From: Arenicellales bacterium
GTDB lineage: Bacteria > Pseudomonadota > Gammaproteobacteria > Arenicellales > JAJDZL01
Direction: 5' to 3'
Assembly: GCA_965116205.1 (NCBI GenBank)
Contig: OZ220493.1
Coordinates: 1,412,510 to 1,476,509 of the forward strand
Length of the DNA stretch: 64,000 nt
The notes beneath the pieces were generated by a model. That model was not told the DNA's origin. It saw only the letters and a program-made list of their open reading frames with translations, and did not search any database. This document shows, piece by piece, positions 654-57,923 of the stretch. Position 1 is the first letter of the stretch; every line of letters begins with the position of its first letter. Both the position numbers and the translations under genes were made by a program.

Positions 654-680
654 ATCACTGTTACAATTGAGAAGGTCTCA

Positions 681-19519: not shown

Positions 19520-19527
19520 AGATGAGC

Positions 19528-19548: not shown

Positions 19549-19723
19549 AGTGATTTGATATGCAGCATTTTATTGATTGCTCATTGATGAGTGATGTTTC
19601 TAAAATGTCATCTGTCTCGTTATTTCCCCGGTGGTTATCGAGAGGGGCCGGCGCATGAGTGGAGCTGTCAGATTCTCCCTTGTGATACAATTTCGATGAC
19701 ACCGCTACTCAGTACATACGGCA

Positions 19724-21292: not shown

Positions 21293-21300
21293 AGATGAAC

Positions 21301-21320
21301 AGTGCTGTTCAGTTCACGTT
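21301..21320 (+). terminator. weak hairpin after paralogue 2
   Basis: AGTGCTG-TT-CAG(TT)CAC then GTTT. CCG/CGG in copy 1 becomes CTG/CAG here, a compensatory pair. Confidence 0.3.
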
Positions 21321-21369
21321 TAGTGATTTGATATGCAGAATTTTGTTGATTGCTGATTGATTCTCCCTT

Positions 21370-21399
21370 TTGACAAAATTTCAATGACACCTTTACTTA
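21370..21399 (+). promoter_or_regulatory. candidate sigma70-type promoter of paralogue 3
   Basis: Perfect -35 TTGACA (21370-21375), 18-nt spacer, weak -10 TACTTA (21394-21399), ATG at 21412. This implies a very short leader. A degenerate version precedes paralogues 1 and 2. Confidence 0.3.
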
Positions 21400-21411
21400 G
21401 TACATACGGCA

Positions 21412-26838: not shown

Positions 26839-27303
26839 ATGCCGACCTACGTACGCACTGACAAATGTGATGGTTGCAAAGGCCAGGACAAAACGGCCTG
26901 TATGTACATTTGTCCACACGATTTAATGTTCTTGGACAAGGATGGCTCTCTGACCGGACACCCGATGAAAGCCTTCAATCAGGAACCGGAACAATGCTGG
27001 GAGTGCTATTCTTGTGTCAAGATCTGTCCTCAGCAGGCGATTGAAGTTCGCCATTATGCAGATGTCGTACCGCTTGGTGCATCGGTACAACCATTACGCG
27101 GAACCGAATCGATCATGTGGACCATTAAATTTCGTAATGGCAATCGCAAACGATTTAAATTTCCGATTCGAACCACCCCTGAAGGATCCGCGGAGCCTTA
27201 CGTCAATAAACCCTCAGCCGATTTCAGCGAAATTGAAGATCACACCGTCCTGTTTACCAAGAGCATGCACGATTGTGATATGACGCAGTTCGTCAACCAC
27301 TGA
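26839..27303 (+). CDS. aprB: adenylylsulfate (APS) reductase beta subunit
   Basis: 154 aa. MPTYVRTDKCDGCKG..ACMYICPHDLM and CWECYSCVKICPQQAI ferredoxin-type clusters. SD AGGAGAAGGA ends 4 nt before the ATG. Confidence 0.9.
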   Translation: MPTYVRTDKCDGCKGQDKTACMYICPHDLMFLDKDGSLTGHPMKAFNQEPEQCWECYSCVKICPQQAIEVRHYADVVPLGASVQPLRGTESIMWTIKFRNGNRKRFKFPIRTTPEGSAEPYVNKPSADFSEIEDHTVLFTKSMHDCDMTQFVNH

Positions 27304-27328
27304 ACATTTCCATCCAAGGAGTGAACTA

Positions 27329-32262: not shown

Positions 32263-32283
32263 AAAATTTTTTGGGGGGGGGGG
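32263..32283 (+). repeat. A4-T6-G11 homopolymer block ending 8 nt upstream of the giant-gene ATG
   Basis: AAAATTTTTTGGGGGGGGGGG read directly (11 G at 32273-32283), then TGAAGCCG and the ATG at 32292. Confidence 0.9.
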
Positions 32284-32291: not shown

Positions 32292-32384
32292 ATGGCTACC
32301 CGCCAGAGGATGTCCTGTTGCCTGAATGCGGCATTACTCACCTTGTTGTTGCTGGTTGTGGCCGTATCACCGGTCACACAGGCG
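32292..32384 (+). other. Sec signal peptide of the giant protein
   Basis: MATRQRMSCCLNAALLTLLLLVVAVSPVTQA|QS: basic n-region, hydrophobic core, and an A-x-A-like TQA cleavage site. Confidence 0.7.
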
Positions 32385-44300: not shown

Positions 44301-47300
44301 GCCAGTGGCACCACGGCGGTGACGGTGACGGCGACGCGCGCGGGCACGGCGACGTCGACGACGGCCACCACCATCGCCATTGCGGTGACCAGTGGCACGG
44401 CGACGGCGGGCAACGATTTCAGCGAGGTGACGGATTTTGACCTCACGGTGGCCGCCGGGGCGACGTCGGGCACCGCGGATTTCGATCTCACCGTCACCGC
44501 CGACAGTCAGGACGAGGTCAATGAGACGGTGGCCGTCGATGGCACGCTGTCGAGCAACACGGTCACCGGCACCACGGTGACCATCACCGATGACGATGCC
44601 ATACCGGCACTGAGCATCGCGGCGCCGAGTGCGGCGGTGACCGAAGGCGACAGCGGCAGTACGGACATGACGTTCACCGTCACGCTGGGGGTCGTCAGCG
44701 GACGGCCGGTGACGGTCGATTATGCGGTGGATGCCACGGCGACGGCGACGGGTACGGATTTCACCGGGGGTGCCGGCACGCTGACGTTCAATGCCGGTGA
44801 GACACGGAAGTCGATCACCGTCAGCGTCACCGGTGATGAGCTGGACGAGGCGGACGAGACGGTGGTGCTGAAGCTGTCGGATGCCACCAATGCGAGCATT
44901 GGCACCGCCACGGCGACGGGGACCATTACCGATGATGATGCGCCGCCGGCACTGAGCATCGCGGCACCGAGTGCGGCGGTGACCGAAGGCGACAGTGGCA
45001 GTACGGACATGACGTTCACCGTCACGCTGGGGGCGGCCAGCGGTCGGTCGGTGACGGTGGACTATGCGGTGGATGCTACGTCAACGGCGGCCGCGGGTAC
45101 GGATTTCACCGGGGGTGCCGGCACCTTGACCTTTGCCCCCGGCACGACACAGCAGTCGATCACCGTCAGCGTCACCGGCGATGAGCTGGACGAGGACGAC
45201 GAGACGGTGGTGCTGAAGTTGTCGGATGCCACCCATGCGAGCATTGGTAGCGCCACGGCGATGGGGACCATCACCGATGATGACGCATCGCCGGTGCTGG
45301 CCGCACTTGAGAATGAGACGGTGGCGACGGGAGGGACGGTGTCGGTGACGGCAGCGGCCACCGATGCCGACGGTGATACTGTAACGTATGTCTGGACGCG
45401 CAAGACCGGGGAGACAACTCCGGCACTGCCGAGCACCACCATGGATGCGGCGACGCTGTCCTTCACGGCGGGTACGGCCGGTGTCTATACGATGACGGTG
45501 ACGGCCTCGGACGGCAACGGCAATTCAGCCACCGCGACGGTGGTGATCACGGTGACGGCGAAGGTCGTGGTGTCGGTGCCGAAGAACCTGACGGTGACCG
45601 AGGGTGACGATACCAGGGCACGGGTGACCATTGCCACGGCCACGGCGTTCGGCGAGTCGGTCACCTTCGACGTCACTTACACCGATGGCACGGCGACCGG
45701 GCATGGTACGCTGGCCAGTGGCGATTATGACAACGATGCGGTGACTTCGGTCACGTTCAGCGGCACGGATACGGAGCAACACATTGATGTGCCGCTCAAC
45801 GATGATGATTTGGATGAAGTGAGTGAGCGATTTACGGTGGGTATTGCGCTGGCCACTGGCAGCACGCTGCCGGCGACGCATACGCTGGGCAATGCGGTGA
45901 CCCGGGTGACCATCAATGACGATGATGAGCCGCCGACGGTGAGCATTGCCAATGCGGCGGCGGTGACCGAAGGCGACAGTGGCGAGGCGACGATGACGTT
46001 CAATGTTTCGCTGTCGGCGGCCAGCGGTCGGGCGGTGACGGTGGACTATGCGGTGGATGCCGCGACGACGGCGACCGCGGGTACGGATTTCACGGCGGTG
46101 TCGGGCACGCTGACGTTCAGTGCCGGTCAGACACAGAAGCCGATTGCGGTCACCGTCAAGGGAGACACGCTGGATGAGGCGGATGAGACGGTGGTGGTGA
46201 AGCTGTCGAATCAGGCCAACGCCACTTTGGGTACGGCCACCGGCAGTGGCACCATCACCGATGATGACACGCTGAGTACGAGCTGGGCGTTGAGTGTGAC
46301 CCCGGCCACGGTGACCGAGGCCAGTGGCACCACGGCGGTGACGGTGACGGCGACGCGCGCGGGCACGGCGACGTCGACGACGGCCACCACCATCGCCATT
46401 GCGGTGACCAGTGGCACGGCGACGGCGGGCAACGATTTCAGCGAGGTGACCGGTTTCAACCTCACGGTGGCGGCCGGGGCGACGTCGGGCACCGTGGATT
46501 TCAATCTCACTGTTACTGCTGATAGTCGGGACGAAGCGGATGAGACGGTGGCCGTCAATGGCACGCTGTCGAGCAACACGGTCACCGGCACCACGGTGAC
46601 CATTACTGATGACGATGCGACGCCGGTGCTGGCGGAGATTCCTAATGAGACGGTGAAGTTGGGTCAGGCGGTGACCATCACCGCGGTGGCGACCGAAGAC
46701 GATGGTGACACGGTCACGTACGTCTGGTCGCGCAAGCCCGGAGAAACGATGCCGGTCATACCGAACGGCACGGCACTGAATCAGGCACGGCTGACATTCA
46801 CGCCGCCGGCGGCGGGCACTTACACGATGACGGTCACGGCGTCGGATGGCAATGGCAACACGGACACCGAAGAGGTGACGATCACGGTGACGGCATCCAC
46901 GGCGAGTGTAGCTGCCGCGGTACCGGTGCCGGCGCAACCAACGGGTTTGACGACAAAGGTGAACCCAAATAACGGGATCATACTTTCTTGGACAGCAACT
47001 GGTGATACGACTATCACCGGTTGGGAGTATCGTATTAAAGAATTGTTAGCCGCGAGTCCTGCTTGGGGAAATAGCGTCAGAATTTTAGGGGCTGATTCTG
47101 GGACAAGAACAGTTGAAGTTTACACAAGAGCCAATTTCTGGCATGGCCAAAAACTGGAATTCCAAGTACGATCGGTCAACATATCTGGAAATAGTCCTTG
47201 GTCAAGAATAGCTTCTGCGACGGTTAGTAACTCTTGGAATTTATCATTTGAGGTTAAACCGGCTGAAATTAGAGTTGTCCAAGGTGAAACTGCTACCTAC

Positions 47301-50300
47301 ACATTGACAAATGTGGGGTACGGAGTCCCGGGAAGGGCTGAGCTTTCCAGTCGGGACAGTAGTGTCGCTACAGTACCTTCGACTGTGAACTTTGAAAGTA
47401 CCCGCGAAACATCCAAGCAAGTCACGGTAACAGGGGTTGCAGTTGGTAGTACGGTCATATCTCACGACGCCTTCTATCACAAATGGGGTAGCAGGCCAAT
47501 CAATTCCTTCGCCTCATTTGAGAACATGGCTACGGTCAAGGTGAGGGTGGTACCACAAAAACCTGCCAAGCCGACGGGCTTGACCGCCAGAGCGGGTAAC
47601 GCACAGGTCACACTCAGCTGGACAGACCCCGGTAATTCCGACATTACGGGGTGGGAGTATCAGCGAAAGATAAACTCCAGTATATACAGTTACCGTCCTT
47701 GGGTCCCCATACCGGATTCAAGTGCCAGTACAACGAGCTATACGGTAAAAAATCTGACTGGAAATGTGAGTTATGCTTTCAGAATTCGGGCAGTTAATGA
47801 TGCGGGTGGTAGTCCGCCCTCAGATGCGGCCGTAGCACAAGTACAGTACCAAGCCCCCGCTAAACCTATCGGGTTAAAGGCGACCGCGGATGATAAACAG
47901 ATTACGCTCAGTTGGACAAATCCCATCAATCCTAGCATTTCACGATGGGAGTATCAGCAAAAAGCCGGCGCGGGAAGGTATGGTGGTTGGATCAAAATGC
48001 AAGATTCGAATGCGGCCACGTGGAGATACACGGTACGGAATTTGAATAATGGTACGAACTATACATTTAAGATCCGGGCAGTGAATGTCACGTCTCAAGC
48101 AAGTGCACCCTCCGACGAAGTGACGATCGCACCGGTTGTGCCATCTATAGTCTCGGTGCCGGCGACTCTAATGGTGGCTGAGGGTGCTGGTAATGCAACG
48201 GTGACCATCACCACGGCTGCGGCCTTCAGTCAATCGGTGACGTTCGATGTCACCTATGGTGGCAGTTCGGCGACCGGGGCGAACAATCCGGCGAATGGTG
48301 ACTACGACAACGATGCGGTGACCGCGGTGACGTTCGGTGTGAGCGACACGACGAAGGACATTGTCATTCCGATCACTGATGATAGTCGCGACGAAAAAAA
48401 TGAAACGTTTACGGTAACAATTGCTCCAGCTGCTGACCTACCACATGGGTTTAAGTTGGGCACCACGAAGACTACCGTAACCATCACCGACGACGATGAA
48501 TCACCAGTACTAGCTGAAATTAATGATGTCACGATCAAATTAGGTGAGACGGTGAATATCACGGCCTCGGCGACCGATGGCGACAGTGACACGATCACTT
48601 ATGTTTGGACGAGATTGAATGGTGAAACGATACCGGTCTTACCGAGCGGCACTGACCTGACTAAGGCGCGTTTGACCTTCACGCCCTTGGTAGGTGGTGT
48701 AAGTCCTTTTGTAGGTTCTAGTGCGAGTTACACGATGACGGTGACGGCGACGGATAGCGACGGTAATAAGGACACCGAGCAGGTGGCGATCACGGTAGAT
48801 GAAGAGGTCGCAGTATCGGTGCCAGTGTCAGTGTCAGTGACAGAGGGGACAGATGCGAATGCGCGAATAACAATAACACCATCATCAACATTTAATAGTG
48901 CGACAACCTTCAACGTTAGTTACAGTGACGGTACGGCAACCGGGGCGAATGTTCCATCTGATGGTGACTATGACAATGATGCGGTGACACAGGTGACTCT
49001 CAGTGCGGGCGACACCGAGAAACACATTGACATCCCGATCACCGATGATGATCTGGATGAAGACGACGAGACGTTCACGGTGACAGTTGCGGCCGCCGCC
49101 GCTCTACCCGGTGGATTCGAACTGAGTAAGACCACGGTGACCATCACCGATGATGATGAGTCGCCGGAGCTGGCGGCACTGGACGATGTCACGGTGCAGC
49201 TGGGTCAGGCGGTGGATGTGACGGCATCGGCGACCGATGGCGATGGCGACACGGTCACTTATGCCTGGACGCGCAAGACCGGGGAAACGGTGCCGGCCAT
49301 CCCGAACGGCACGGCACTGAATGCGGCGCGGCTGACGTTCACGCCACCGGCGGCGGGCACTTACACGATGACGGTGACGGCGTCCGATGGCAATGACAAT
49401 ACGGACACTGCGGAGGTGACCATTACGGTGTCGGCGGCGGCCGTGGTGTCGGTGCCGGCGACGCTGACGGTGGCCGAGGCGGTGGGCGATGCGACGGTGA
49501 CGGTGACCACCACGGCGGCGTTCGGTGAATCGGTGACGCTGAATGTCACTTATGGTGGCAGTTCGGCGACCGGGGCCAGTAATCCGGCGAGTGGCGACTA
49601 CGACAATGATGCGGTGACCGCGGTGACGTTCGGTGCGGCGGACACCACGAAGGACATTGACATTCCGATCACCGATGATGATCTGGATGAAGCAGCTGAG
49701 ACGTTCACGGTGACCATTGCGGCGGCTTCGAGCGGGCTGCCGGCCGGCTGGGCGCTGGGTACCAAGAAGACCACGGTGACCATCACCGATGACGATGAGT
49801 CGCCGGAGCTGGCGGCACTGGACGATGTCACGGTGCAGCTGGGTCAGGCGGTGGATGTGACGGCGGTGGCGACCGATGGCGATGGCGACACGGTCACTTA
49901 TGCCTGGACGCGCAAGACCGGGGAAACGGTGCCGGCCATCCCGAACGGTACGACACTGAATGCGGCGCGGCTGACGTTCACGCCACCGGCGGCGGGCACT
50001 TACACGATGACGGTGACGGCGTCCGATGGCAATGACAATACGGACACTGCGGAGGTGACCATTACGGTGTCGGCGGCGGCCGTGGTGTCGGTGCCGGCGA
50101 CGCTGACGGTGGCCGAGGCGGTGGGCGATGCGACGGTGACGGTGACCACCACGGCGGCGTTCGGTGAATCGGTGACGCTGAATGTCACCTATGGTGGCAG
50201 TTCGGCGACCGGGGCCAGTAATCCGGCGAGTGGCGACTATGACAATGATGCGGTGACTGCGGTGACGTTCGGTGCGGCGGACACCACGAAGGACATTGAC

Positions 50301-53300
50301 ATTCCGATCACCGATGATGATCTGGATGAAGCAGCTGAGACGTTCACGGTGACCATTGCGGCGGCTTCGAGCGGGCTGCCGGCCGGCTGGACGCTGGGTA
50401 CCAAGAAGACCACGGTGACCATCACCGATGACGATGAGTCGCCGGAGCTGGCGGCACTGGACGATGTCACGGTGCAGCTGGGTCAGGCGGTGGATGTGAC
50501 GGCGGCGGCGACCGATGGCGATGGCGACACGGTCACTTATGCCTGGACGCGCAAGACCGGGGAAACGGTGCCGGCCATCCCGAACGGCACGGCACTGAAT
50601 GCGGCGCGGCTGACGTTCACGCCACCGGCGGCGGGCACTTACACGATGACGGTGACGGCGTCCGATGGCAATGACAATACGGACACTGCGGAGGTGACCA
50701 TTACGGTGTCGGCGGCGGCCGTGGTGTCGGTGCCGGCGACGCTGACGGTGGCCGAGGCGGTGGGCGATGCGACGGTGACGGTGACCACCACGGCGGCGTT
50801 CGGTGAATCGGTGACGCTGAATGTCACCTATGGTGGCAGTTCGGCGACCGGGGCCAGTAATCCGGCGAGTGGCGACTATGACAATGATGCGGTGACTGCG
50901 GTGACGTTCGGTGCGGCGGACACCACGAAGGACATTGACATTCCGATTACCGATGATGATCTGGATGAAGCAGCTGAGACGTTCACGGTGACCATTGCGG
51001 CAGCTTCGAGCGGGCTGCCGGCCGGCTGGACGCTGGGTACCAAGAAGACCACGGTGACCATCACCGATGACGATGAGTCGCCGGAGCTGGCGGCACTGGA
51101 CGATGTCACGGTGCAGCTGGGTCAGGCGGTGGATGTGACGGCGGCGGCGACCGATGGCGATGGCGACACGGTCACTTATGCCTGGACGCGCAAGACCGGG
51201 GAAACGGTGCCGGCCATCCCGAACGGCACGGCACTGAATGCGGCGCGGCTGACGTTCACGCCACCGGCGGCGGGCACTTACACGATGACGGTGACGGCGT
51301 CCGATAACAATGACAATACGGACACTGCGGAGGTGACCATTACGGTGTCGGCGGCGGCCGTGGTGTCGGTGCCGGCGACGCTGACGGTGGCCGAATCGGT
51401 GGGCGATGCGACGGTGACGGTGACCACCACGGCGGCGTTCGGTGAATCGGTGACGCTGAATGTCACCTATGGTGGCAGTTCGGCGACCGGGGCCAGTAAT
51501 CCGGCGAGTGGCGACTATGACAATGATGCGGTGACCGCGGTGACGTTCGGTGCGGCGGACACCACGAAGGACATTGACATTCCGATCACCGATGATGATC
51601 TGGATGAAGCAGCTGAGACGTTCACGGTGACCATTGCGGCGGCTTCGAGCGGGCTGCCGGCCGGCTGGACGCTGGGCACCAAGAAGACCACGGTGACCAT
51701 CACCGATGACGATGAGTCGCCGGAGCTGGCGGCACTGGACGATGTCACGGTGCAGCTGGGTCAGGCGGTGGATGTGACGGCGGCGGCGACCGATGGCGAT
51801 GGCGACACGGTCACTTATGCCTGGACGCGCAAGACCGGGGAAACGGTGCCGGCCATCCCGAACGGCACGGCACTGAATGCGGCGCGGCTGACGTTCACGC
51901 CACCGGCGGCGGGCACTTACACGATGACGGTGACGGCGTCCGATGGCAATGACAATACGGACACTGCGGAGGTGACCATTACGGTGTCGGCGGCGGCCGT
52001 GGTGTCGGTGCCGGCGACGCTGACGGTGGCCGAGGCGGTGGGCGATGCGACGGTGACGGTGACCACCACGGCGGCGTTCGGTGAATCGGTGACGCTGAAT
52101 GTCACCTATGGTGGCAGTTCGGCGACCGGGGCCAGTAATCCGGCGAGTGGCGACTATGACAATGATGCGGTGACCGCGGTGACGTTCGGTGCGGCGGACA
52201 CCACGAAGGACATTGACATTCCGATCACCGATGATGATCTGGATGAAGCAGCTGAGACGTTCACGGTGACCATTGCGGCAGCTTCGAGCGGGCTGCCGGC
52301 CGGCTGGACGCTGGGCACCAAGAAGACCACGGTGACCATCACCGATGACGATGAGTCGCCGGAGCTGGCGGCACTGGACGATGTCACGGTGCAGCTGGGT
52401 CAGGCGGTGGATGTGACGGCGGCGGCGACCGATGGCGATGGCGACACGGTCACTTATGCCTGGACGCGCAAGACCGGGGAAACGGTGCCGGCCATCCCGA
52501 ACGGCACGGCACTGAATGCGGCGCGGCTGACGTTCACGCCACCGGCGGCGGGCACTTACACGATGACGGTGACGGCGTCCGATGGCAATGACAATACGGA
52601 CACTGCGGAGGTGACCATTACGGTGTCGGCGGCGGCCGTGGTGTCGGTGCCGGCGACGCTGACGGTGGCCGAGGCGGTGGGCGATGCGACGGTGACGGTG
52701 ACCACCACGGCGGCGTTCGGTGAATCGGTGACGCTGAATGTCACCTATGGTGGCAGTTCGGCGACCGGGGCCAGTAATCCGGCGAGTGGCGACTATGACA
52801 ATGATGCGGTGACTGCGGTGACGTTCGGTGCGGCGGACACCACGAAGGACATTGACATTCCGATCACCGATGATGATCTGGATGAAGCAGCTGAGACGTT
52901 CACGGTGACCATTGCGGCGGCTTCGAGCGGGCTGCCGGCCGGCTGGACGCTGGGTACCAAGAAGACCACGGTGACCATCACCGATGACGATGAGTCGCCG
53001 GAGCTGGCGGCACTGGACGATGTCACGGTGCAGCTGGGTCAGGCGGTGGATGTGACGGCATCGGCGACCGATGGCGATGGCGACACGGTCACTTATGCCT
53101 GGACGCGCAAGACCGGGGAAACGGTGCCGGCCATCCCGAACGGCACGGCACTGAATGCGGCGCGGCTGACGTTCACGCCACCGGCGGCGGGCACTTACAC
53201 GATGACGGTGACGGCGTCCGATGGCAATGACAATACGGACACTGCGGAGGTGACCATTACGGTGTCGGCGGCGGCCGTGGTGTCGGTGCCGGCGACGCTG

Positions 53301-56300
53301 ACGGTGGCCGAGGCGGTGGGCGATGCGACGGTGACGGTGACCACCACGGCGGCGTTCGGTGAATCGGTGACGCTGAATGTCACTTATGGTGGCAGTTCGG
53401 CGACCGGGGCCAGTAATCCGGCGAGTGGCGACTACGACAATGATGCGGTGACCGCGGTGACGTTCGGTGCGGCGGACACCACGAAGGACATTGACATTCC
53501 GATCACCGATGATGATCTGGATGAAGCAGCTGAGACGTTCACGGTGACCATTGCGGCGGCTTCGAGCGGGCTGCCGGCCGGCTGGGCGCTGGGTACCAAG
53601 AAGACCACGGTGACCATCACCGATGACGATGAGTCGCCGGAGCTGGCGGCACTGGACGATGTCACGGTGCAGCTGGGTCAGGCGGTGGATGTGACGGCGG
53701 TGGCGACCGATGGCGATGGCGACACGGTCACTTATGCCTGGACGCGCAAGACCGGGGAAACGGTGCCGGCCATCCCGAACGGTACGACACTGAATGCGGC
53801 GCGGCTGACGTTCACGCCACCGGCGGCGGGCACTTACACGATGACGGTGACGGCGTCCGATGGCAATGACAATACGGACACTGCGGAGGTGACCATTACG
53901 GTGTCGGCGGCGGCCGTGGTGTCGGTGCCGGCGACGCTGACGGTGGCCGAGGCGGTGGGCGATGCGACGGTGACGGTGACCACCACGGCGGCGTTCGGTG
54001 AATCGGTGACGCTGAATGTCACCTATGGTGGCAGTTCGGCGACCGGGGCCAGTAATCCGGCGAGTGGCGACTATGACAATGATGCGGTGACTGCGGTGAC
54101 GTTCGGTGCGGCGGACACCACGAAGGACATTGACATTCCGATTACCGATGATGATCTGGATGAAGCAGCTGAGACGTTCACGGTGACCATTGCGGCGGCT
54201 TCGAGCGGGCTGCCGGCCGGCTGGACGCTGGGCACCAAGAAGACCACGGTGACCATCACCGATGACGATGAGTCGCCGGAGCTGGCGGCACTGGACGATG
54301 TCACGGTGCAGCTGGGTCAGGCGGTGGATGTGACGGCGGTGGCGACCGATGGCGATGGCGACACGGTCACTTATGCCTGGACGCGCAAGACCGGGGAAAC
54401 GGTGCCGGCCATCCCGAACGGCACGGCACTGAATGCGGCGCGGCTGACGTTCACGCCACCGGCGGCGGGCACTTACACGATGACGGTGACGGCGTCCGAT
54501 GGCAATGACAATACGGACACCGCGGAGGTGACCATTACGGTGTCGGCGGCGGCCGTGGTGTCGGTGCCGGCGACGCTGACGGTGGCCGAGGCGGTGGGCG
54601 ATGCGACGGTGACGGTGACCACCACGGCGGCGTTCGGTGAATCGGTGACGCTGAATGTCACTTATGGTGGCAGTTCGGCGACCGGGGCCAGTAATCCGGC
54701 GAGTGGCGACTACGACAATGATGCGGTGACTGCGGTGACGTTCGGTGCGGCGGACACCACGAAGGACATTGACATTCCGATCACCGATGATGATCTGGAT
54801 GAAGCAGCTGAGACGTTCACGGTGACCATTGCGGCGGCTTCGAGCGGGCTGCCGGCCGGCTGGACGCTGGGCACCAAGAAGACCACGGTGACCATCACCG
54901 ATGACGATGAGTCGCCGGAGCTGGCGGCACTGGACGATGTCACGGTGCAGCTGGGTCAGGCGGTGGATGTGACGGCGGCGGCGACCGATGGCGATGGCGA
55001 CACGGTCACTTATGCCTGGACGCGCAAGACCGGGGAAACGGTGCCGGCCATCCCGAACGGCACGGCACTGAATGCGGCGCGGCTGACGTTCACGCCACCG
55101 GCGGCGGGCACTTACACGATGACGGTGACGGCGTCCGATGGCAATGACAATACGGACACTGCGGAGGTGACCATTACGGTGTCGGCGGCGGCCGTGGTGT
55201 CGGTGCCGGCGACGCTGACGGTGGCCGAGGCGGTGGGCGATGCGACGGTGACGGTGACCACCACGGCGGCGTTCGGTGAATCGGTGACGCTGAATGTCAC
55301 TTATGGTGGCAGTTCGGCGACCGGGGCCAGTAATCCGGCGAGTGGCGACTATGACAATGATGCGGTGACTGCGGTGACGTTCGGTGCGGCGGACACCACG
55401 AAGGACATTGACATTCCGATCACCGATGATGATCTGGATGAAGCAGCTGAGACGTTCACGGTGACCATTGCGGCGGCTTCGAGCGGGCTGCCGGCCGGCT
55501 GGACGCTGGGCACCAAGAAGACCACGGTGACCATCACCGATGACGATGAGTCGCCGGAGCTGGCGGCACTGGACGATGTCACGGTGCAGCTGGGTCAGGC
55601 GGTGGATGTGACGGCGGCGGCGACCGATGGCGATGGCGACACGGTCACTTATGCCTGGACGCGCAAGACCGGGGAAACGGTGCCGGCCATCCCGAACGGC
55701 ACGGCACTGAATGCGGCGCGGCTGACGTTCACGCCACCGGCGGCGGGCACTTACACGATGACGGTGACGGCGTCCGATGGCAATGACAATACGGACACTG
55801 CGGAGGTGACCATTACGGTGTCGGCGGCGGCCGTGGTGTCGGTGCCGGCGACGCTGACGGTGGCCGAGGCGGTGGGCGATGCGACGGTGACGGTGACCAC
55901 CACGGCGGCGTTCGGTGAATCGGTGACGCTGAATGTCACTTATGGTGGCAGTTCGGCGACCGGGGCCAGTAATCCGGCGAGTGGCGACTACGACAATGAT
56001 GCGGTGACCGCGGTGACGTTCGGTGCGGCGGACACCACGAAGGACATTGACATTCCGATTACCGATGATGATCTGGATGAAGCAGCTGAGACGTTCACGG
56101 TGACCATTGCGGCGGCTTCGAGCGGGCTGCCGGCCGGCTGGACGCTGGGTACCAAGAAGACCACGGTGACCATCACCGATGATGATGCGGTCGGAGTGAC
56201 GTTATCAGTGACTGAACTGACTGTAGTAGAGGGAAGTGAAAACAGTTACACGGTAGTCTTGAATTCCGAACCGACGGCTGATGTAACCATTGCGATCAGC

Positions 56301-57923
56301 GGCGCTGCCGGTGACGTGACCTTGGATAAATCATCGCTAACCTTTACGACATCCAATTGGTCTACGGCGCAGACCGTGACAGTGTCGGCAATGAAAGATG
56401 AAGACCTGATCGAGGATGCTGACGTGACGCTGACGCACAGTGCCAGTGGCGGAGACTATGACTCAGTTACCATTGATTCTGTGACCGTAAAAGTGACCGA
56501 AAACGATGCATCAAATGATGAGCAGATGGAACGTGTCAACCGTGTCCACTCTGAACTGTTGCCTCGTTTGGTTGAAGAGATGGTATCGGTGGATGTAGTC
56601 ATTCGTCGCATCGAAGATTTAGAAGGTGGTGCACCTACGGGCAACTCGTTCCGTTTTGGTACATCACCCGCTACGATTCAGCCAATGGGGCTTCACGATT
56701 ATCAATGGTCGACAGAATCATCTCAATCGCGACCGACTCTTCAGGAGTTGATGAATGGCGCCGCTTTCAACATGTCGGTTGATGATACCGGGACTTCGGA
56801 GGGTGGTTTGGTATTTTGGGGTCAAAGTGATTGGCTGTCACTCTCAGATTCAGGAAACAACGTATCTTGGGATGGTGAAATGTGGTCAGCCAATTTTGGA
56901 ATTGACACTCGTATCCGTTCAGACCTGTTGGCCGGTGTTGCAGTATCTCGGCACGAAGGTCAATTCGATGCGGAAACCGACGACCGGAAGTCCGTCTACG
57001 AAACGGGACTGAACTCAGTGCAACCTTATATGGCATGGCTGTTGGAGGATGGATCAAATCTGTGGACCAGTGCTGGTTACGGTGATGGTAGAGTACGCGT
57101 CAAGGAGGAAGGCAGCGATTCTTGGCAGACTGTCGATCTGAAGATATCCAACGTCGCGGTGGGCGGTCGCGGCATGTTGGATTTGGATCCGCATATGATT
57201 GAGGGTGGCACGACCCGTCTTGCCATCAAAGGTGAGGGATCTTTCGTTAGGGGCAAAACAACAGCCAGTGGGGTTTTGCAAGCTCTGAGAGTGAATACCC
57301 ACCGATTACGCCTGTTGTTACAAGGCTCGCATGAACGAACACTTTCGAATGGTGAGCAACTGACTTCGACTTTGGAGATGGGCGTTCGCTACGATGGAGG
57401 TGAAACTGCTGAACAGAACAACTTGGAAGTTGGCGCCAGTGTGAGTTATCGTAACCCTGCCTCTCGACTGACGCTTGAGGCTCATGCTAGAGGTTTGGTT
57501 GCAGCTGAGAAAGAGCGCAAAGAATGGGGCGTCGGCGGTCGCGTGCAATTGGATTCAGATGCGAAGGGGCGCGGCCTTTACCTGAAGATGATGCCTACTT
57601 ATGGAAATGTGGAAGATGGATTCAATCAGTTGTTTAATCACAAATCGGCATCAGCAGTGAGCTCGGAGAGTGGATTTAATCCTAGATTTCATCTGGAGGC
57701 TGAGCTGGGTTACGGAGTTGCCGTACCCGTTCCAGGACCATTGGCAGTATTGAGCCCCTATGCTGGATTTTCATTGGCTGAAGAAGGCAACCGAACTTTC
57801 CGACTCGGCACGCGTTACAGCCACACAGAGAATCTTTCTATAAGTATTGAAGCTGAACGCAGTTTAAATATTGAGTCCATTGCAGAGCATGGGATCGCGC
57901 TACGTGGCGAGATTCGCTGGTAG
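32292..57923 (+). CDS. giant (8,543 aa) secreted modular surface protein: FN3 + Calx-beta-like + PKD/Ig-like modules with C-terminal autotransporter-like beta-barrel
   Basis: A single uninterrupted ORF (tracked from 32271). ATG 32292 yields a classical Sec signal. About 19 FN3-like modules (..L.W..P....I..WEYQQK......W......T..Y.V..L.NGT.Y.F.VRAVN..G.G..S). Many Calx-beta-like modules (VTEGDSG...MTF.V.L...SGR.VTVDYAV....TA.AGTDF....GTLTF..G.TQ..I.V.V.GD.LDE.DETVV.KLS......TITDDD). PKD/cadherin-like Ig modules (ATD.DGDTVTY.WTRK.GE..P......A.LTFT...GTYTMTVTASDGN.N). The protein ends ...LRGEIRW. Confidence 0.9.
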   Translation: MATRQRMSCCLNAALLTLLLLVVAVSPVTQAQSIPPQPEPAQLFKAFAGDQEITVTWDSPRLAENFLRWELSIQPRGRGKIARADVVFITERRASYSYTYREFTELNSSGGYKETKTRLKNGQTYVIDIVARYRLNESTTAGSDYKSVSATPVPKPAKPVNFRATSGNEQITLAWQQLTDQSTVTGMVESISRWEYRQKIGAAPYGMWTAIPSSEGETASHVVTGLNNGTVYRFKVRAVNPTGNGVESAEVTATPIPSGKVSRLSVDSNRITEGNAGIKHVNIYITLGEAAPTGGFGLGLQFVQRRNQGAVSFMDGYGCGGGVARNAPDPKADMCWIRRNVTIPAGERTGRFVIGIIGDTDVEVDESFAGLYATGRVDGWGQINPQIPSLTIVNDDGIPTGLVATPGNQQVTLSWTGPRDNNITRWEYQQKEGADGFGAWQTINPRSNTYVVENLKNDVAYAFKVRAVYRTINGPGPPSEEVSATPTAPRIIIPIREMTLDEGGHGSYNVQVSLRPTENVTVVVSGATDGVSVSPSSLTFTPVNWNIPQNIRVDVGEDDDAVSEDVTLKHRATGSGFAAAVSQAVVVRVRDNDSTGLTVSVPALTITEGSRAAYTMKLNSEPTDDVTVTVGGVSGDISVSSNSLTFTALNWNIPQPVMVSAGDDADAKNDAPVTLTHSAAGGDYDSVTVELMVTVTDDDPPIQPKNFTVSAGNQQATLTWDDPENPNITGWEYQQRTGDGSYGAWVPIANSDATTTTHPVTGLTNGTVYAFKLRAVNSAGNGVESTEVTAVPFGAGKKITLSTAKTRITEGDDGFKLIDISITIGETVTASDGLQITFEINKTASTATTIDPGNYLASCTEPNPADADQCWIVAPNRGSVSTGSSSSNYLIGILGDTRAENDETIVLKAVPDDVAYTGGSITLTIVDDDASPTAPTDFSVMPGNAQVELSWTGPDDARITSWEYRQKTGSGTFGNWISMPDSDATTRTHTVSNLSNSTVYAFKVRAVNSFGAGTESPEKSATPRAPPASPTGLTATAGDGQVSLSWTDPNDVSITRWEYQQKAGGSFGSWMAIAGSGASTTTYTVIELTNGTEYAFKVRAVNRSGEGGESAEATATPVPPVPLAPTGLTATAGNTQVALSWNNLRDASTIRWEYQQKAGGSYGSWMPIPGSDATTMGHTVTGLVNGTIYTFKVRAVNLGGSGAESGEASATPLLPPLKPTGFNATKGEGLVKLSWNNLNNASITRWEYQQRAGGGNYGNWTTMLGSGAATTQHEVARLTNGTTYTFKIRAVNTAGPGAVSDAVSVTPLARPAKPTGFSATSDFKSVKLSWTNPNNNSITRWEYQQRAGTGGSYGLWMAIPNSSASTTTYTVPDLNNGTAYSLRVRAVNEIGAGRPSDVTVATPALQPPHQPTGLSAEASDGQVVLRWHNPNNSRITGYQYQQKESSGNYGGWQTITGSSATTTTHTVTGLTNWTTYTFQIRAVNSAGNSPASAEVQSTPIPRTAKPTGFKAVPGNRQVILTWDDPKDTDIKGWFIRYKPRFLNKWYRHVIIPGSDRSTTSFTVTRLVVTLDRGNTKSDPLNNGTKYDFQVSAYRSTRDFPDDLLWSNVVSATPLPPPARPTGFTAVPVGDGAVQLNWNNPNNASITKWQYQQQEGSNTPSWLDVKNSGADTTKQVVTGLTNGTEYTFKIRAVNIAGNGAESGAATVTPTQPGADVSPLSITVEENDKEDYEIKLKTLPSGNVTIVVSGASGDVSVSPNRLTFTPLNWSAAQKVTVSVAKDDDAIDDEDVTLLHRASGGGYNSVSIDSVTVSVNDTTPTLQLLTAPSSVTEGMDISLTVTSDRALTGTHPISLSLADRDASGFTAADISGSLGRRNFDAIFGETASTTGTVAIPTVLDSDKTEGTETYRITLHDATDYEVGSNVEVDGELVDATNLVSVPQTQSLNEGGSNTAVTISTDASFGTSVKFNVSYNDISATGAIDPTNGDYDSDAVSSVTFDTSETSKDIEITLNDDGLDEADETFTVTVALADGSTLPAGFALDNTVTMVTIVDDDETPVLEEIADVTVDVGQDVDITAVATDGDNDAVSYSWARKAGETSPAIPRNTNLTAARLTFTTTSRGTYTMTVTAADGHGNSDTEEVVITVYLPVPVAPTGFRAQAGDAEVVLSWNNPNNPSIDGWEYQQKEGSGNFGDWLPISGADASTTTHTVTGLTNDAVYTFKIRAMNVTGDGDESTEATATPRLAPPDKPTKFTAVAGDMKVTLSWKDPKNASIIRWEYHQYDDANEIASGWRSIPNSGPSTKTYTVTGLANTFTYVFKVRAVNVAGNGTESEEMVAIPELPRPKKPQSISALPSNRQIVLTWDNANNPSIDVWEYQQREDDGDFGEWLPFSETSTTTMHTVTNLTNGVTYAFKVRAVNASGPGDESDEVTAVPILKPPKPTGFSADPGDGQVTLIWTNPNDQLIEGWQVQFKLSIQVGWPTPTEVPDGTATDYVVRNLQNLEYDFRIRAYYSGSNFGRWSDTRSTTPVQKGVTVSTSKLTVDEGGQGKYTVKLNTIPTSEVTIDVLVGAGSDDVSVKPNRLTFTSRNWNKPKTVKVSAAKDEDAVTEAAVELMHSAKGGGYDSVGIDSVTVTVTETTPILQLLTDPVAVTEGADISLTVTSNRALTGTLAVNLTLADRGASGFSAADIQGELGPRNFDATFGDSPSMTGTVVIPTSADSVGENAETYQITLNDTAEYELGNDTTADGTLNDDGKGVVPATLVSVPATLTVTEGTDANATVTITSGVAFGQAVTFNVTYGGTATGAAVPGAGDDYDSDAATQVQFNATDTTKDIVIPLNDDALNEAAETITVTVAVVGGRLPDGFALGNAVTTVTITDDDDVPTVSIANAAAVTEGDSGDATMTFNVSLSAASGRAVTVDYAVDAATTATAGTDFTAVSGTLTFSAGQTQKPIAVTVKGDTLDEADETVVVKLSNQANATLGTATGSGTITDDDTLSTSWALSVTPATVTEASGTTAVTVTATRAGTATSTTATTIAIAVTSGTATAGNDFSEVTGFNLTVAAGATSGTANFDLVVTADSLSEVNETVTVGGTLQGNTFNGTTVTITDDDAVPTLSIAAPIAAVTEGDSGSTSMTFTVTLGAVSGRSVTVDYAVDVASTAAGTDFTGGAGTLTFAAGETQQSITVSVTGDELDEVDETVVLKLSNPTHATIGTATATGTITDDDASPVLAALSAVSKKVGQTVTVVASATDADADTISYAWTKDSGPALPSGTKFDVATLTFTAATVGAYVLTVTASDGNDNEDTKTVTVTVSAADTVSVPKQVTVAEGGGSVTVKVAASAALGQAVTLDVTYGGAASQTADYDATAVTSVDFGTTDTFKNIVIPITDDRLDEVDETFTVTIALAGSSTLPAGVILGNAVTTVTITDNDTVSTNWALSVEPATVTEASGTTAVTVTATRAGTVTAATSTTLAIAVTGGTATAGTDFDAVTGFNIMVAAGATSGEADFDLMVTADTLDEVDETLTVGGTLSGATVSGTTVTITDDDAPPALSIVAPSAAVTEGDSGSTDMTFSVTLGAASGRSVTVDYAVDATSTAAAGTDFTGGAGTLTFAPGTTQQSITVSVTGDELDEDDETVVLKLSDATHASIGSATAMGTITDDDASPVLAALENETVATGGTVSVTAAATDADGDTVTYVWTRKTGETTPALPSTTMDAATLSFTAGTAGVYTMTVTASDGNGNSATATVVITVTAKVVVSVPKNLTVTEGDDTRARVTIATATAFGESVTFDVTYTDGTATGHGTLASGDYDNDAVTSVTFSGTDTEQHIDVPLNDDDLDEVSERFTVGIALATGSTLPATHTLGNAVTRVTINDDDEPPTVSIADAAAVTEGDSGEAMMTFNVSLSAASGRAVTVDYAVDAASTAMAGTDFTAVSGTLTFSAGQTQQSVAVTVKGDTLDEADETVVVKLSNQANATLGAATGSGTITDDDTLSTSWALSVTPATVTEASGTTAVTVTATRAGTATSTTATTIAIAVTSGTATAGNDFSEVTDFDLTVAAGATSGTADFDLTVTADSQDEVNETVAVDGTLSSNTVTGTTVTITDDDAIPALSIAAPSAAVTEGDSGSTDMTFTVTLGVVSGRPVTVDYAVDATATATGTDFTGGAGTLTFNAGETRKSITVSVTGDELDEADETVVLKLSDATNASIGTATATGTITDDDAPPALSIAAPSAAVTEGDSGSTDMTFTVTLGAASGRSVTVDYAVDATSTAAAGTDFTGGAGTLTFAPGTTQQSITVSVTGDELDEDDETVVLKLSDATHASIGSATAMGTITDDDASPVLAALENETVATGGTVSVTAAATDADGDTVTYVWTRKTGETTPALPSTTMDAATLSFTAGTAGVYTMTVTASDGNGNSATATVVITVTAKVVVSVPKNLTVTEGDDTRARVTIATATAFGESVTFDVTYTDGTATGHGTLASGDYDNDAVTSVTFSGTDTEQHIDVPLNDDDLDEVSERFTVGIALATGSTLPATHTLGNAVTRVTINDDDEPPTVSIANAAAVTEGDSGEATMTFNVSLSAASGRAVTVDYAVDAATTATAGTDFTAVSGTLTFSAGQTQKPIAVTVKGDTLDEADETVVVKLSNQANATLGTATGSGTITDDDTLSTSWALSVTPATVTEASGTTAVTVTATRAGTATSTTATTIAIAVTSGTATAGNDFSEVTGFNLTVAAGATSGTVDFNLTVTADSRDEADETVAVNGTLSSNTVTGTTVTITDDDATPVLAEIPNETVKLGQAVTITAVATEDDGDTVTYVWSRKPGETMPVIPNGTALNQARLTFTPPAAGTYTMTVTASDGNGNTDTEEVTITVTASTASVAAAVPVPAQPTGLTTKVNPNNGIILSWTATGDTTITGWEYRIKELLAASPAWGNSVRILGADSGTRTVEVYTRANFWHGQKLEFQVRSVNISGNSPWSRIASATVSNSWNLSFEVKPAEIRVVQGETATYTLTNVGYGVPGRAELSSRDSSVATVPSTVNFESTRETSKQVTVTGVAVGSTVISHDAFYHKWGSRPINSFASFENMATVKVRVVPQKPAKPTGLTARAGNAQVTLSWTDPGNSDITGWEYQRKINSSIYSYRPWVPIPDSSASTTSYTVKNLTGNVSYAFRIRAVNDAGGSPPSDAAVAQVQYQAPAKPIGLKATADDKQITLSWTNPINPSISRWEYQQKAGAGRYGGWIKMQDSNAATWRYTVRNLNNGTNYTFKIRAVNVTSQASAPSDEVTIAPVVPSIVSVPATLMVAEGAGNATVTITTAAAFSQSVTFDVTYGGSSATGANNPANGDYDNDAVTAVTFGVSDTTKDIVIPITDDSRDEKNETFTVTIAPAADLPHGFKLGTTKTTVTITDDDESPVLAEINDVTIKLGETVNITASATDGDSDTITYVWTRLNGETIPVLPSGTDLTKARLTFTPLVGGVSPFVGSSASYTMTVTATDSDGNKDTEQVAITVDEEVAVSVPVSVSVTEGTDANARITITPSSTFNSATTFNVSYSDGTATGANVPSDGDYDNDAVTQVTLSAGDTEKHIDIPITDDDLDEDDETFTVTVAAAAALPGGFELSKTTVTITDDDESPELAALDDVTVQLGQAVDVTASATDGDGDTVTYAWTRKTGETVPAIPNGTALNAARLTFTPPAAGTYTMTVTASDGNDNTDTAEVTITVSAAAVVSVPATLTVAEAVGDATVTVTTTAAFGESVTLNVTYGGSSATGASNPASGDYDNDAVTAVTFGAADTTKDIDIPITDDDLDEAAETFTVTIAAASSGLPAGWALGTKKTTVTITDDDESPELAALDDVTVQLGQAVDVTAVATDGDGDTVTYAWTRKTGETVPAIPNGTTLNAARLTFTPPAAGTYTMTVTASDGNDNTDTAEVTITVSAAAVVSVPATLTVAEAVGDATVTVTTTAAFGESVTLNVTYGGSSATGASNPASGDYDNDAVTAVTFGAADTTKDIDIPITDDDLDEAAETFTVTIAAASSGLPAGWTLGTKKTTVTITDDDESPELAALDDVTVQLGQAVDVTAAATDGDGDTVTYAWTRKTGETVPAIPNGTALNAARLTFTPPAAGTYTMTVTASDGNDNTDTAEVTITVSAAAVVSVPATLTVAEAVGDATVTVTTTAAFGESVTLNVTYGGSSATGASNPASGDYDNDAVTAVTFGAADTTKDIDIPITDDDLDEAAETFTVTIAAASSGLPAGWTLGTKKTTVTITDDDESPELAALDDVTVQLGQAVDVTAAATDGDGDTVTYAWTRKTGETVPAIPNGTALNAARLTFTPPAAGTYTMTVTASDNNDNTDTAEVTITVSAAAVVSVPATLTVAESVGDATVTVTTTAAFGESVTLNVTYGGSSATGASNPASGDYDNDAVTAVTFGAADTTKDIDIPITDDDLDEAAETFTVTIAAASSGLPAGWTLGTKKTTVTITDDDESPELAALDDVTVQLGQAVDVTAAATDGDGDTVTYAWTRKTGETVPAIPNGTALNAARLTFTPPAAGTYTMTVTASDGNDNTDTAEVTITVSAAAVVSVPATLTVAEAVGDATVTVTTTAAFGESVTLNVTYGGSSATGASNPASGDYDNDAVTAVTFGAADTTKDIDIPITDDDLDEAAETFTVTIAAASSGLPAGWTLGTKKTTVTITDDDESPELAALDDVTVQLGQAVDVTAAATDGDGDTVTYAWTRKTGETVPAIPNGTALNAARLTFTPPAAGTYTMTVTASDGNDNTDTAEVTITVSAAAVVSVPATLTVAEAVGDATVTVTTTAAFGESVTLNVTYGGSSATGASNPASGDYDNDAVTAVTFGAADTTKDIDIPITDDDLDEAAETFTVTIAAASSGLPAGWTLGTKKTTVTITDDDESPELAALDDVTVQLGQAVDVTASATDGDGDTVTYAWTRKTGETVPAIPNGTALNAARLTFTPPAAGTYTMTVTASDGNDNTDTAEVTITVSAAAVVSVPATLTVAEAVGDATVTVTTTAAFGESVTLNVTYGGSSATGASNPASGDYDNDAVTAVTFGAADTTKDIDIPITDDDLDEAAETFTVTIAAASSGLPAGWALGTKKTTVTITDDDESPELAALDDVTVQLGQAVDVTAVATDGDGDTVTYAWTRKTGETVPAIPNGTTLNAARLTFTPPAAGTYTMTVTASDGNDNTDTAEVTITVSAAAVVSVPATLTVAEAVGDATVTVTTTAAFGESVTLNVTYGGSSATGASNPASGDYDNDAVTAVTFGAADTTKDIDIPITDDDLDEAAETFTVTIAAASSGLPAGWTLGTKKTTVTITDDDESPELAALDDVTVQLGQAVDVTAVATDGDGDTVTYAWTRKTGETVPAIPNGTALNAARLTFTPPAAGTYTMTVTASDGNDNTDTAEVTITVSAAAVVSVPATLTVAEAVGDATVTVTTTAAFGESVTLNVTYGGSSATGASNPASGDYDNDAVTAVTFGAADTTKDIDIPITDDDLDEAAETFTVTIAAASSGLPAGWTLGTKKTTVTITDDDESPELAALDDVTVQLGQAVDVTAAATDGDGDTVTYAWTRKTGETVPAIPNGTALNAARLTFTPPAAGTYTMTVTASDGNDNTDTAEVTITVSAAAVVSVPATLTVAEAVGDATVTVTTTAAFGESVTLNVTYGGSSATGASNPASGDYDNDAVTAVTFGAADTTKDIDIPITDDDLDEAAETFTVTIAAASSGLPAGWTLGTKKTTVTITDDDESPELAALDDVTVQLGQAVDVTAAATDGDGDTVTYAWTRKTGETVPAIPNGTALNAARLTFTPPAAGTYTMTVTASDGNDNTDTAEVTITVSAAAVVSVPATLTVAEAVGDATVTVTTTAAFGESVTLNVTYGGSSATGASNPASGDYDNDAVTAVTFGAADTTKDIDIPITDDDLDEAAETFTVTIAAASSGLPAGWTLGTKKTTVTITDDDAVGVTLSVTELTVVEGSENSYTVVLNSEPTADVTIAISGAAGDVTLDKSSLTFTTSNWSTAQTVTVSAMKDEDLIEDADVTLTHSASGGDYDSVTIDSVTVKVTENDASNDEQMERVNRVHSELLPRLVEEMVSVDVVIRRIEDLEGGAPTGNSFRFGTSPATIQPMGLHDYQWSTESSQSRPTLQELMNGAAFNMSVDDTGTSEGGLVFWGQSDWLSLSDSGNNVSWDGEMWSANFGIDTRIRSDLLAGVAVSRHEGQFDAETDDRKSVYETGLNSVQPYMAWLLEDGSNLWTSAGYGDGRVRVKEEGSDSWQTVDLKISNVAVGGRGMLDLDPHMIEGGTTRLAIKGEGSFVRGKTTASGVLQALRVNTHRLRLLLQGSHERTLSNGEQLTSTLEMGVRYDGGETAEQNNLEVGASVSYRNPASRLTLEAHARGLVAAEKERKEWGVGGRVQLDSDAKGRGLYLKMMPTYGNVEDGFNQLFNHKSASAVSSESGFNPRFHLEAELGYGVAVPVPGPLAVLSPYAGFSLAEEGNRTFRLGTRYSHTENLSISIEAERSLNIESIAEHGIALRGEIRW
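35085..37416 (+). repeat. eight consecutive FN3-like modules (about 290 bp each), diverged
   Basis: Module starts: PTDFSVMPGNAQVELSW, PTGLTATAGDGQVSLSW, PTGLTATAGNTQVALSW, PTGFNATKGEGLVKLSW, PTGFSATSDFKSVKLSW, PTGLSAEASDGQVVLRW, PTGFKAVPGNRQVILTW, PTGFTAVPVGDGAVQLNW. Confidence 0.8.
38731..39872 (+). repeat. four consecutive FN3-like modules
   Basis: PTGFRAQAGDAEVVLSW, PTKFTAVAGDMKVTLSW, PQSISALPSNRQIVLTW, PTGFSADPGDGQVTLIW, each followed by a W.YQ.. and ..F.VRA.. core. Confidence 0.75.
40938..46609 (+). repeat. Calx-beta-rich block with nested kb-scale duplications (offsets 2,982 and 2,019 bp)
   Basis: A segment starting GTGAGCATTGCC recurs at 40938, 43920 and 45939. 42902-44590 is repeated at 44921-46609. 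The core, about 42960-43975 versus 44979-45994, differs at only about 8 positions by my reading. Confidence 0.8.
49158..56186 (+). repeat. 11 tandem, in-frame, near-identical 639-bp (213-aa) units, each one PKD/Ig-like + one Calx-beta-like module
   Basis: GAGTCGCCGGAGCTGG starts at 49158, 49797, 50436, 51075, 51714, 52353, 52992, 53631, 54270, 54909 and 55548. Units 5 and 6 differ at 3 of 639 nt by my reading. A diverged unit precedes the array (about 48495-49157). Confidence 0.9.
56502..57920 (+). other. C-terminal helical linker + autotransporter-like outer-membrane beta-barrel domain
   Basis: Helix-prone EQMERVNRVHSELLPRLVEEMVSVDVVIRRIEDLEG, then alternating-pattern strands (VFWGQSDWLSLS, WSANFGIDTRI, LAGVAVSRHEG, LWTSAGYGDGRVRV, FHLEAELGYGVAV, LSISIEAERSL). 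The terminal residues are GEIRW, i.e. aromatic. Confidence 0.6.

Follow-up and report, generated by a model that had tools for sequence, protein, structure and literature searches.

A giant adhesin-like gene of an Arenicellales bacterium carries an array of near-identical didomain units that probably forms a recombination-homogenised stalk

We examined a 64,000-nt stretch of DNA from an Arenicellales bacterium (GenBank assembly GCA_965116205.1, contig OZ220493.1, positions 1,412,510 to 1,476,509 of the forward strand; hereafter the window, with positions counted from its first letter) and found that a giant open reading frame (ORF) at 32271-57923 carries, in frame 0, an array of 11 units of 639 bp (213 aa each) at 49158-56186 on the forward strand. 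The array probably encodes the membrane-proximal stalk of a giant adhesin anchored in the outer membrane, and its units are probably homogenised by intragenic recombination. This reading fits the predicted architecture of the protein, which combines a Sec signal, units of two beta-sandwich domains beside a C-terminal barrel and an all-beta AlphaFold2 (AF2) model of the units. The repeats also bear a distinctive codon composition, which we consider the most interesting lead of the study and weightier than the stalk finding itself.

Anatomy of the array

Features of the array and its 5' edge:
49158-56186, forward strand: array of 11 units of 639 bp, delimited by window comparison and a variant table.
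48501-49160, forward strand: older, diverged, in-phase unit copy of 220 aa that directly abuts unit 1, with 69% nucleotide identity to the array consensus and a G+C content at third codon positions (GC3) of 0.54.
49158-50308, forward strand: tract of 1,151 bp that spans unit 1 and 512 bp of unit 2 and is repeated without change at 52992-54142 (units 7-8).
49182-49430, forward strand: PKD-like immunoglobulin (Ig) domain of unit 1 (unit residues 8-90, from SPELAAL; Pfam), recurring every 639 bp.
49455-49796, forward strand: Calx-beta domain of unit 1 (unit residues 99-212; Pfam Calx-beta, 46.9 bits), recurring every 639 bp.

Direct comparison of 639-bp windows gave unit starts at 49158, 49797 and every 639 bp thereafter to 55548, with the array ending at 56186, exactly as a preliminary description of the DNA had reported. 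Identity to unit 5 was 98.9-100% for the units and 25-35% for the flanking 639-bp windows. The coordinates and period given earlier were exact. Near-identity extends ~30 bp further 5', to near 49128, and beyond this lies the older 69% copy. The array was omitted by TRF solely because the maximum period of that program is 500.

Variation among the units comprises 18 variable nucleotide sites, with 0-11 differences per unit pair and a mean pairwise diversity of 0.95%; 10 of the 11 units are distinct. All variants are substitutions, mostly synonymous, and there are no indels or frame breaks. Codon 24 (TCG, GTG or GCG) reads S,V,A,A,A,A,S,V,V,A,A across units 1-11, the order given previously, and units 5 and 6 differ at 3 nt, again as claimed. 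Units 2 and 8 carry GGT ACG ACA where the alternative state is GGC ACG GCA, codon 199 varies between GCG and ACG, and unit 4 alone has the changes GGC>AAC and GAG GCG>GAA TCG. Every variant listed in the preliminary description was found in the array, but that list had missed three silent sites: GCA/GCG at codon 23, ACT/ACC at codon 84 (unit 9) and GAC/GAT at codon 212 (unit 11). Private changes number four in unit 4 and one each in units 9 and 11.

The units have a pS of 0.024 and a pN of 0.004. As the variants are substitutions only and pN/pS is 0.18, we conclude that they are genuine biological differences under purifying selection. The synonymous near-identity of the units is too high for protein-level selection alone.

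Exchange between units

A per-unit variant matrix, which the preliminary description had proposed together with a recombination test, contained all four gametes at 20 of the 66 informative site pairs. The minimum number of recombination events (Rm) was at least five, such that at least five exchanges, or recurrent mutations, are required within 639 bp at 1% diversity. Unit similarity was independent of distance, with neighbours no closer than distant units. This mosaic of variants, the four-gamete failures and the lack of a distance effect bear out the earlier suggestion of ongoing exchange between units.

It had also been noted that units 1-2 resemble units 7-8 at an offset of 3,834 bp. Indeed, no site separates unit 1 from unit 7 and only two separate unit 2 from unit 8, with the exact match at this offset running for 1,151 bp. 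The accompanying idea of a six-unit higher-order repeat was rejected: units 3-5 and 9-11 have 19 differences over 1,917 positions, no fewer than the background of ~6 per unit pair, and the periodicity reduces to the single identical tract. This tract between non-adjacent units marks a very recent copy event (conversion or duplication). The amplification itself need not be very recent; the array type is common to a diverged lineage (see below), and the array may therefore be old and continually homogenised.

We also observed that the TCG Ser codon of units 1 and 7 (49227-49229 and 53061-53063) matches the state in the diverged flank copy at 48501-49160. It seems that the edge unit kept, or exchanged, the Ser allele of the flank and was then recently copied to position 7 inside the array.

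Architecture of the giant protein

Features of the gene outside the array:
32271-57923, forward strand: giant ORF, the adhesin gene, of 8,550 codons from the listed TTG; the probable start is ATG at 32292.
32292-32384, forward strand: probable Sec signal peptide, MATRQRMSCCLNAALLTLLLLVVAVSPVTQA followed by QS after the cleavage site, read from the translation if the start is ATG 32292.
40882-46626, forward strand: second repeat region, in which Calx-beta and PKD modules form higher-order repeats; GC3 0.71-0.88.
56187-56510, forward strand: lone beta-sandwich domain of 108 aa that follows the array and precedes the anchor.
56511-57920, forward strand: C-terminal anchor, predicted helices then beta-barrel, ending ...GEIRW (PF03797, AF2).
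32273-32283, forward strand: G11 homopolymer, preceded by T6, that ends 9 nt upstream of the probable ATG 32292.

Each unit comprises a PKD-like Ig domain followed by a Calx-beta domain and ends in the acidic linker TITDDD(E). The Ig domain was recognized by the Pfam family K319L-like_PKD (51.3 bits), as well as by He_PIG, Big_9 and PKD, and the Calx-beta assignment was reinforced by an NCBIfam NCX1 match at unit residues 93-196. An AF2 model of two units contained four beta-sandwich domains and was all-beta, with a mean predicted local distance difference test score (pLDDT) of 82.5 and a predicted template-modelling score (pTM) of 0.60; Foldseek matched it to chains of Ig, cadherin and NCX1 Calx-beta domains. 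A Pfam scan of the whole protein returned 15 stretches of fn3 (13+2), 27 of Calx-beta (12+15) and 17 of K319L-like PKD/He_PIG (4+13), and the protein has ~80 beta-sandwich domains in all together with a recurring domain lacking a Pfam family. Repeats of the second region recur at offsets of 2,019 bp (1,703 bp at 97.4%), 2,982 bp (91.3%) and 5,001 bp (93.5%). At the N-terminus, the translation was read by eye as a basic n-region, a hydrophobic core and an A-x-A-like site.

The 108-aa domain that separates the array from the anchor has ~45-67% identity to a domain repeated many times in its top database matches (matches covering 18% of the query). These include proteins of named sponge-symbiont metagenome-assembled genomes (MAGs), AqS1 and AqS3.

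The anchor was matched by PF03797 (Autotransporter) at 30.6 bits on a 470-aa fragment (cut-off 26; residues 106-224), with only model positions 7-125 of 255 aligned, and at 24.5 bits on a 578-aa fragment. The same family was found in 7 of 12 aligned anchor homologs, and 74 of the candidate stretches in a metagenome scan were confirmed as relatives. In the AF2 model (pLDDT 75), helices precede a barrel of ~18 strands, for which Foldseek returned generic large barrels only, the TM-score to the BrkA beta-domain being 0.58 (normalised to the target). The anchor is predicted to be of autotransporter type. We do not file it as a member of type Va because only half of the Pfam model aligned, ~18 strands are predicted and the Foldseek matches were generic; as type Va barrels have 12 strands, the larger barrel of the model may represent a class of its own.

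An RTX adhesin exported by a type I secretion system (T1SS) was considered and rejected. Pfam scans of the giant protein and of its C-terminus contained no HemolysinCabind or RTX family, no T1SS genes (ABC transporter, membrane fusion protein or TolC-like) lie near the giant gene, and the C-terminus is a predicted beta-barrel. Upstream of the gene lie aprBA, a sulfatase gene and one for an alpha/beta hydrolase; its downstream neighbours encode an SNF2 helicase and a SWIM protein.

The G11 tract is the sole run of at least nine G within the window. An upstream ATG at 32198 reads through it in another frame, and G10 or G13 would fuse this frame to the giant ORF. The tract could be a candidate slipped-strand phase-variation switch or, equally, a homopolymer error hotspot.

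Arrays in relatives

The best match to the unit led to a 2.62-Mb contig of another assembly (L156), in which 26 units of 633 bp are 99.95% alike and differ by one substitution and two 1-bp insertions. Its units have 73-75% identity to those of the window. As identity is at least 99% within each genome and 73-75% between them, the two arrays exhibit concerted evolution, with copy number differing between lineages (11 versus 26). The insertions in L156, at ~9986 and ~10605 (units 13 and 14), split the gene call into 13,680 + 226 + 3,938 aa. Because the contig carries the label 10x, errors in the consensus may account for them, in which case they would not signify pseudogenisation.

In L001, which is related more distantly, a similar C-terminal barrel (47% identical) stands beside a different array, in which a 318-bp unit occurs in at least 17 copies at ~100% identity. 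The unit amplified there is a domain with the same conserved motifs as the 108-aa domain of the window gene. This array (1-5545) reaches the very beginning of its contig, which is presumably circular, as its name ends in 'c'. In a further genome (L157), a 2,112-bp FN3-based higher-order repeat has 98.5-98.8% identity. Near-identical arrays are therefore a recurring trait of this adhesin family, each lineage amplifying its own module.

We also observed a homologous Calx-beta/PKD gene at 1-14825 of L159, from another genome of the same sample as L001. This gene, seemingly in decay, is broken into about eleven short ORFs, lacks near-identical repeats and has a lower GC3 (0.48-0.68) than the genes around it (0.71).

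Codon composition of the repeats

The array has a GC3 of 0.78 and the second repeat region one of 0.71-0.88, compared with 0.34-0.68 in non-repeated parts of the gene and 0.38-0.67 in other window genes. Across 85 bins of 300 nt, GC3 followed the identity of the best intragenic paralog (Spearman 0.82). The enrichment sets in and stops within ~300 nt of either border of the array and is absent where these domains occur unrepeated. The regions that show it are 49158-56186 and 40971-46670 of the window, 3-5585 of L001, 2032-18773 of L156 and 1-8638 of L157.

Fraction of fourfold-degenerate sites that are G/C, and fraction that are G-ending:
Window array: 0.90 G/C; 0.67 G-ending.
Unique parts of the window gene: 0.57 G/C; 0.32 G-ending.
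Nine other window genes: 0.47 G/C; 0.23 G-ending.
L001 array: 0.92 G/C; 0.69 G-ending.
L001 barrel and ten neighbouring genes: 0.33 G/C; 0.16 G-ending.
L156 array: 0.86 G/C; 0.51 G-ending.
L157 higher-order repeat: 0.95 G/C; 0.80 G-ending.
Nine housekeeping genes of the L157 genome (L158): 0.75 G/C; 0.36 G-ending.

The signature thus occurs in four arrays of three unrelated unit types from four genomes, with fourfold-site G/C of 86-95% against a background of 0.33-0.75. In L001 the array has a GC3 of 0.87 and the neighbouring genes 0.31-0.41. Amino-acid content is also shifted, the ratio (Gly+Ala+Arg+Pro)/(Phe+Tyr+Met+Ile+Asn+Lys) being 2.0-2.4 in arrays and 1.1-1.55 where the same domains occur outside them. 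Third-position changes polarised since the split of the window and L156 lineages were balanced, at 4:4 in the former and 17:14 in the latter. A pooled test against decay gave p = 3e-6 relative to an assumed 80% of G/C-to-A/T changes, an expectation drawn from a background GC3 of ~0.47 and not from L156's own genome background; the window lineage alone gave p 0.056. The comparison of the array with its flank copy yields a 38:4 excess that is unpolarisable on that branch, as the outgroup is itself an array. A set of 44 metagenome loci was uninformative for the link between GC3 and repetition, being mostly from high-GC genomes near the ceiling and from short-read assemblies without near-identical arrays.

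Translational selection was judged an unlikely cause of the signature because amino-acid content shifts too, and it is further disfavoured by aprBA, presumably highly expressed, being only mildly G/C-ending. Simple strand-symmetric GC-biased gene conversion (gBGC) is inadequate, as G far exceeds C and GAT/AAT/TAT persist in the window and L156 arrays. We tentatively propose, as a possibility well short of even odds, a G/C bias in the frequent conversion between units, perhaps one that acts partly in a strand-asymmetric way; it would reshape both the codon usage and the protein composition of periscope-type stalks. Biased conversion would fit the link of the signature with homogenisation. Other possible causes are a foreign high-GC cassette, codon-level selection or a strand-asymmetric repair effect. 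Atypical oligonucleotide usage is known for genes of large multidomain surface proteins (PMC1274298). No paper on this codon signature in repeat arrays was found in a literature search that was not exhaustive.

Elsewhere in the window, three tandem paralogous 522-aa genes (AAA-ATPase_like + PDDEXK_9; 17951-22980) are 82-91% identical and have a GC3 of 0.63-0.67. This triplet, which is unrelated to the adhesin, has the highest GC3 among ordinary window genes.

Host organism

Genes upstream of the adhesin gene:
26839-29287: aprB and aprA (adenosine 5'-phosphosulfate reductase), a few kb upstream.
24732-26273: sulfatase, a few kb upstream.

AprA has 94% and 91% protein identity to two Arenicellales MAGs, the first of which is 79% identical in DNA, and AprA relatives at a greater distance carry the labels 'Candidatus Porisulfidus' and 'Poriferihabitaceae'. 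On the basis of aprBA, these AprA relatives and the AqS1 and AqS3 matches to the domain that precedes the anchor, we conclude that the host is a sulfur-oxidising Arenicellales symbiont of sponges. A conspecific genome was sought in several ways. A scan of genome contigs with the C-terminal domain and exact look-ups of the SNF2, SWIM and AprB proteins gave no match, a protein search with the unit returned nothing above 73% identity, and the metagenome scan returned only relatives at 39% identity or less. The AprA loci of the nearest relatives were taken with 3-kb flanks, which are too short to reach the adhesin gene.

Proposed mechanism and alternative explanations

We propose that the protein would be exported by Sec and anchored by its C-terminal autotransporter-type beta-barrel. 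The 11 units would place 22 domains in series, joined by the acidic TITDDD(E) linkers, and the length of the array would set the projection of the N-terminal FN3/Calx-beta region from the cell. By analogy, at 4.6 nm per domain the 22 domains may span ~100 nm, or ~9 nm per unit. Intragenic homologous recombination (gene conversion and unequal crossing-over) would keep the units ~99% identical, and the same process would alter unit number over time. Surface display, a rod shape, rigidification by Ca2+ and present-day variation of copy number within the population are all expected under this proposal.

Several points weigh against this reading. Variation of copy number within a population is unproven, and the count of 11 comes from the assembly alone. 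Ca2+ binding and rod geometry are suggested by motifs and analogy, and with a pTM of 0.60 the AF2 model leaves the relative orientation of the domains uncertain. Some doubt also attaches to the secretion route, as only half of the Pfam autotransporter model was matched and AF2 gave ~18 strands rather than 12. Finally, each lineage could have amplified its orthologous unit on its own, with no homogenised array inherited from a common ancestor.

The alternative that survives best, though we consider it unlikely, is that the array is a high-GC foreign cassette acquired recently from co-resident sponge symbionts, inserted in phase and then amplified, so that its composition reflects its origin. 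Such an acquisition would account for an array GC3 of 0.78 beside 0.38-0.67 in other window genes; in addition, the GC3 of the genes that contain family members in the metagenome loci retrieved is mostly 0.8-0.95, and similarity at the level of domains spans phyla. However, the closest relatives of the unit are the in-phase neighbour and the array of a related genome, with no closer donor among 5.8 billion proteins, and the third-position changes in both lineages are balanced, not mainly G/C-to-A/T as decay would predict. Recurrence of the signature across arrays, unit types and genomes also argues against this alternative, as do fourfold-site G/C ratios of 1.5-5 that exceed the ~1.2 of high-GC relatives.

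Still less probable is an origin of all the units in one recent burst of tandem duplication, after which exchange ceased and the variants accumulated as tree-like mutations. The very low diversity (0.95%) and the private changes of units 4, 9 and 11 are what such a burst would leave, but the four-gamete failures, the exchanges or recurrent mutations that they require and the lack of greater similarity between neighbours are not, and the homologous array in a 25%-diverged lineage has been homogenised separately.

Equally improbable is an assembly artefact, whether in copy number, unit order or the 1,151-bp tract, made by collapse or expansion: arrays of 7 kb with 99% identical copies pose difficulties for assemblers, errors caused by tandem repeats are documented (PMC6868369) and the L156 contig, labelled 10x, carries its two 1-bp insertions inside the array, yet 10 ordered and distinct units with 18 mostly synonymous substitutions and intact frames are unlike read error or collapse, independent assemblies of relatives hold the same kind of array and the nearest relatives are on Mb-scale contigs, some circular, which suggests long-read data.

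Significance

The recombination-homogenised stalk proposed here adds an unusually large Gram-negative example, with a didomain repeat unit, to the known stalk proteins of variable length. FN3 and Calx-beta domains also serve animal cell adhesion, and Calx-beta is present in the aggregation factors of sponges. Because its passenger is rich in FN3 and Calx-beta, domain types of animal adhesion, the adhesin is plausibly a host-contact molecule with a reach that recombination can tune. For annotation the gene family holds a warning, as such genes are fragmented in relatives, in three calls in L156 and in many pieces in L159. If the composition signature does arise from biased gene conversion, it bears on the debated determinants of bacterial GC content, and intragenic repeat arrays would be natural reporters of biased gene conversion in bacteria.

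Comparison with known systems

For the composition signature, the nearest parallel lies in palindromes of mammalian X chromosomes, where conversion maintains at least 99% identity and G/C is raised relative to the surroundings (PMC8981503). Both are near-identical sequences with G/C above that of their surroundings, but the palindromes are eukaryotic and strand-symmetric, whereas the present arrays are bacterial and mainly G-ending on the coding strand.

For the anchor, the protein resembles type Va autotransporters such as BrkA and EspP in its N-terminal signal (MATRQRMSCCLNAALLTLLLLVVAVSPVTQA before QS, as read from the translation), its partial PF03797 match, the predicted helices before the barrel and the terminal aromatic W. 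It differs in that the passenger consists of ~80 Ig-like, FN3 and Calx-beta sandwiches and not a beta-helix, that the Pfam match covers positions 7-125 of 255 and that AF2 predicts ~18 strands versus 12.

The RTX adhesins MpIBP, SiiE, LapA, MhLap and AhLap contain beta-sandwich extender repeats that are up to 94-100% identical within a protein (PMC7493085) and differ strongly between species (PMC7493085, Table 2); their extenders are stiffened by Ca2+ in the linkers, with 4.6 nm per domain in MpIBP (PMC7493085). The window protein is likewise a giant Gram-negative adhesin made mostly of tandem beta-sandwich repeats, and its acidic linkers would suit rigidification by Ca2+. Unlike these adhesins, it lacks RTX nonapeptides and nearby T1SS genes and has a predicted N-terminal Sec signal and C-terminal barrel, and hence its secretion and anchoring route appears to be different.

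Periscope Proteins, among them the SasG G5-E repeats, Rib/alpha C, Sgo_0707 SHIRT and CdrA (Whelan et al. 2021, PMC8201768), are a class in which long, highly identical DNA repeats encode folded, rod-forming domains and intragenic recombination adds or removes repeats (PMC8201768). High DNA identity of repeats is proposed to drive that recombination and goes with variation in repeat number in this class (PMC8201768), whose defining trait is variation of length from strain to strain; here, variation is seen between lineages only (11 versus 26 units). The anchor also differs, being a C-terminal outer-membrane barrel and not LPXTG or two-partner secretion (TPS), and at 8,550 aa the protein is of a much greater size, includes a further region of higher-order repeats and belongs to an uncultured sponge symbiont. 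The likeness lies in a tandem array within a predicted surface protein, long and highly identical DNA repeats (0-11 differences per pair, diversity 0.95%), folded domains in every repeat (Pfam matches above cut-offs, AF2 pLDDT 82.5) that would form an elongated stalk of rod-like geometry, and two structural modules per repeat, as in SasG. Placement at the cell surface is suggested by the Sec-like N-terminus, as it reads in the sequence, and the predicted C-terminal barrel. The best-supported interpretation of the array is therefore a periscope-type stalk under concerted evolution, for which the Periscope Proteins are the closest known class.

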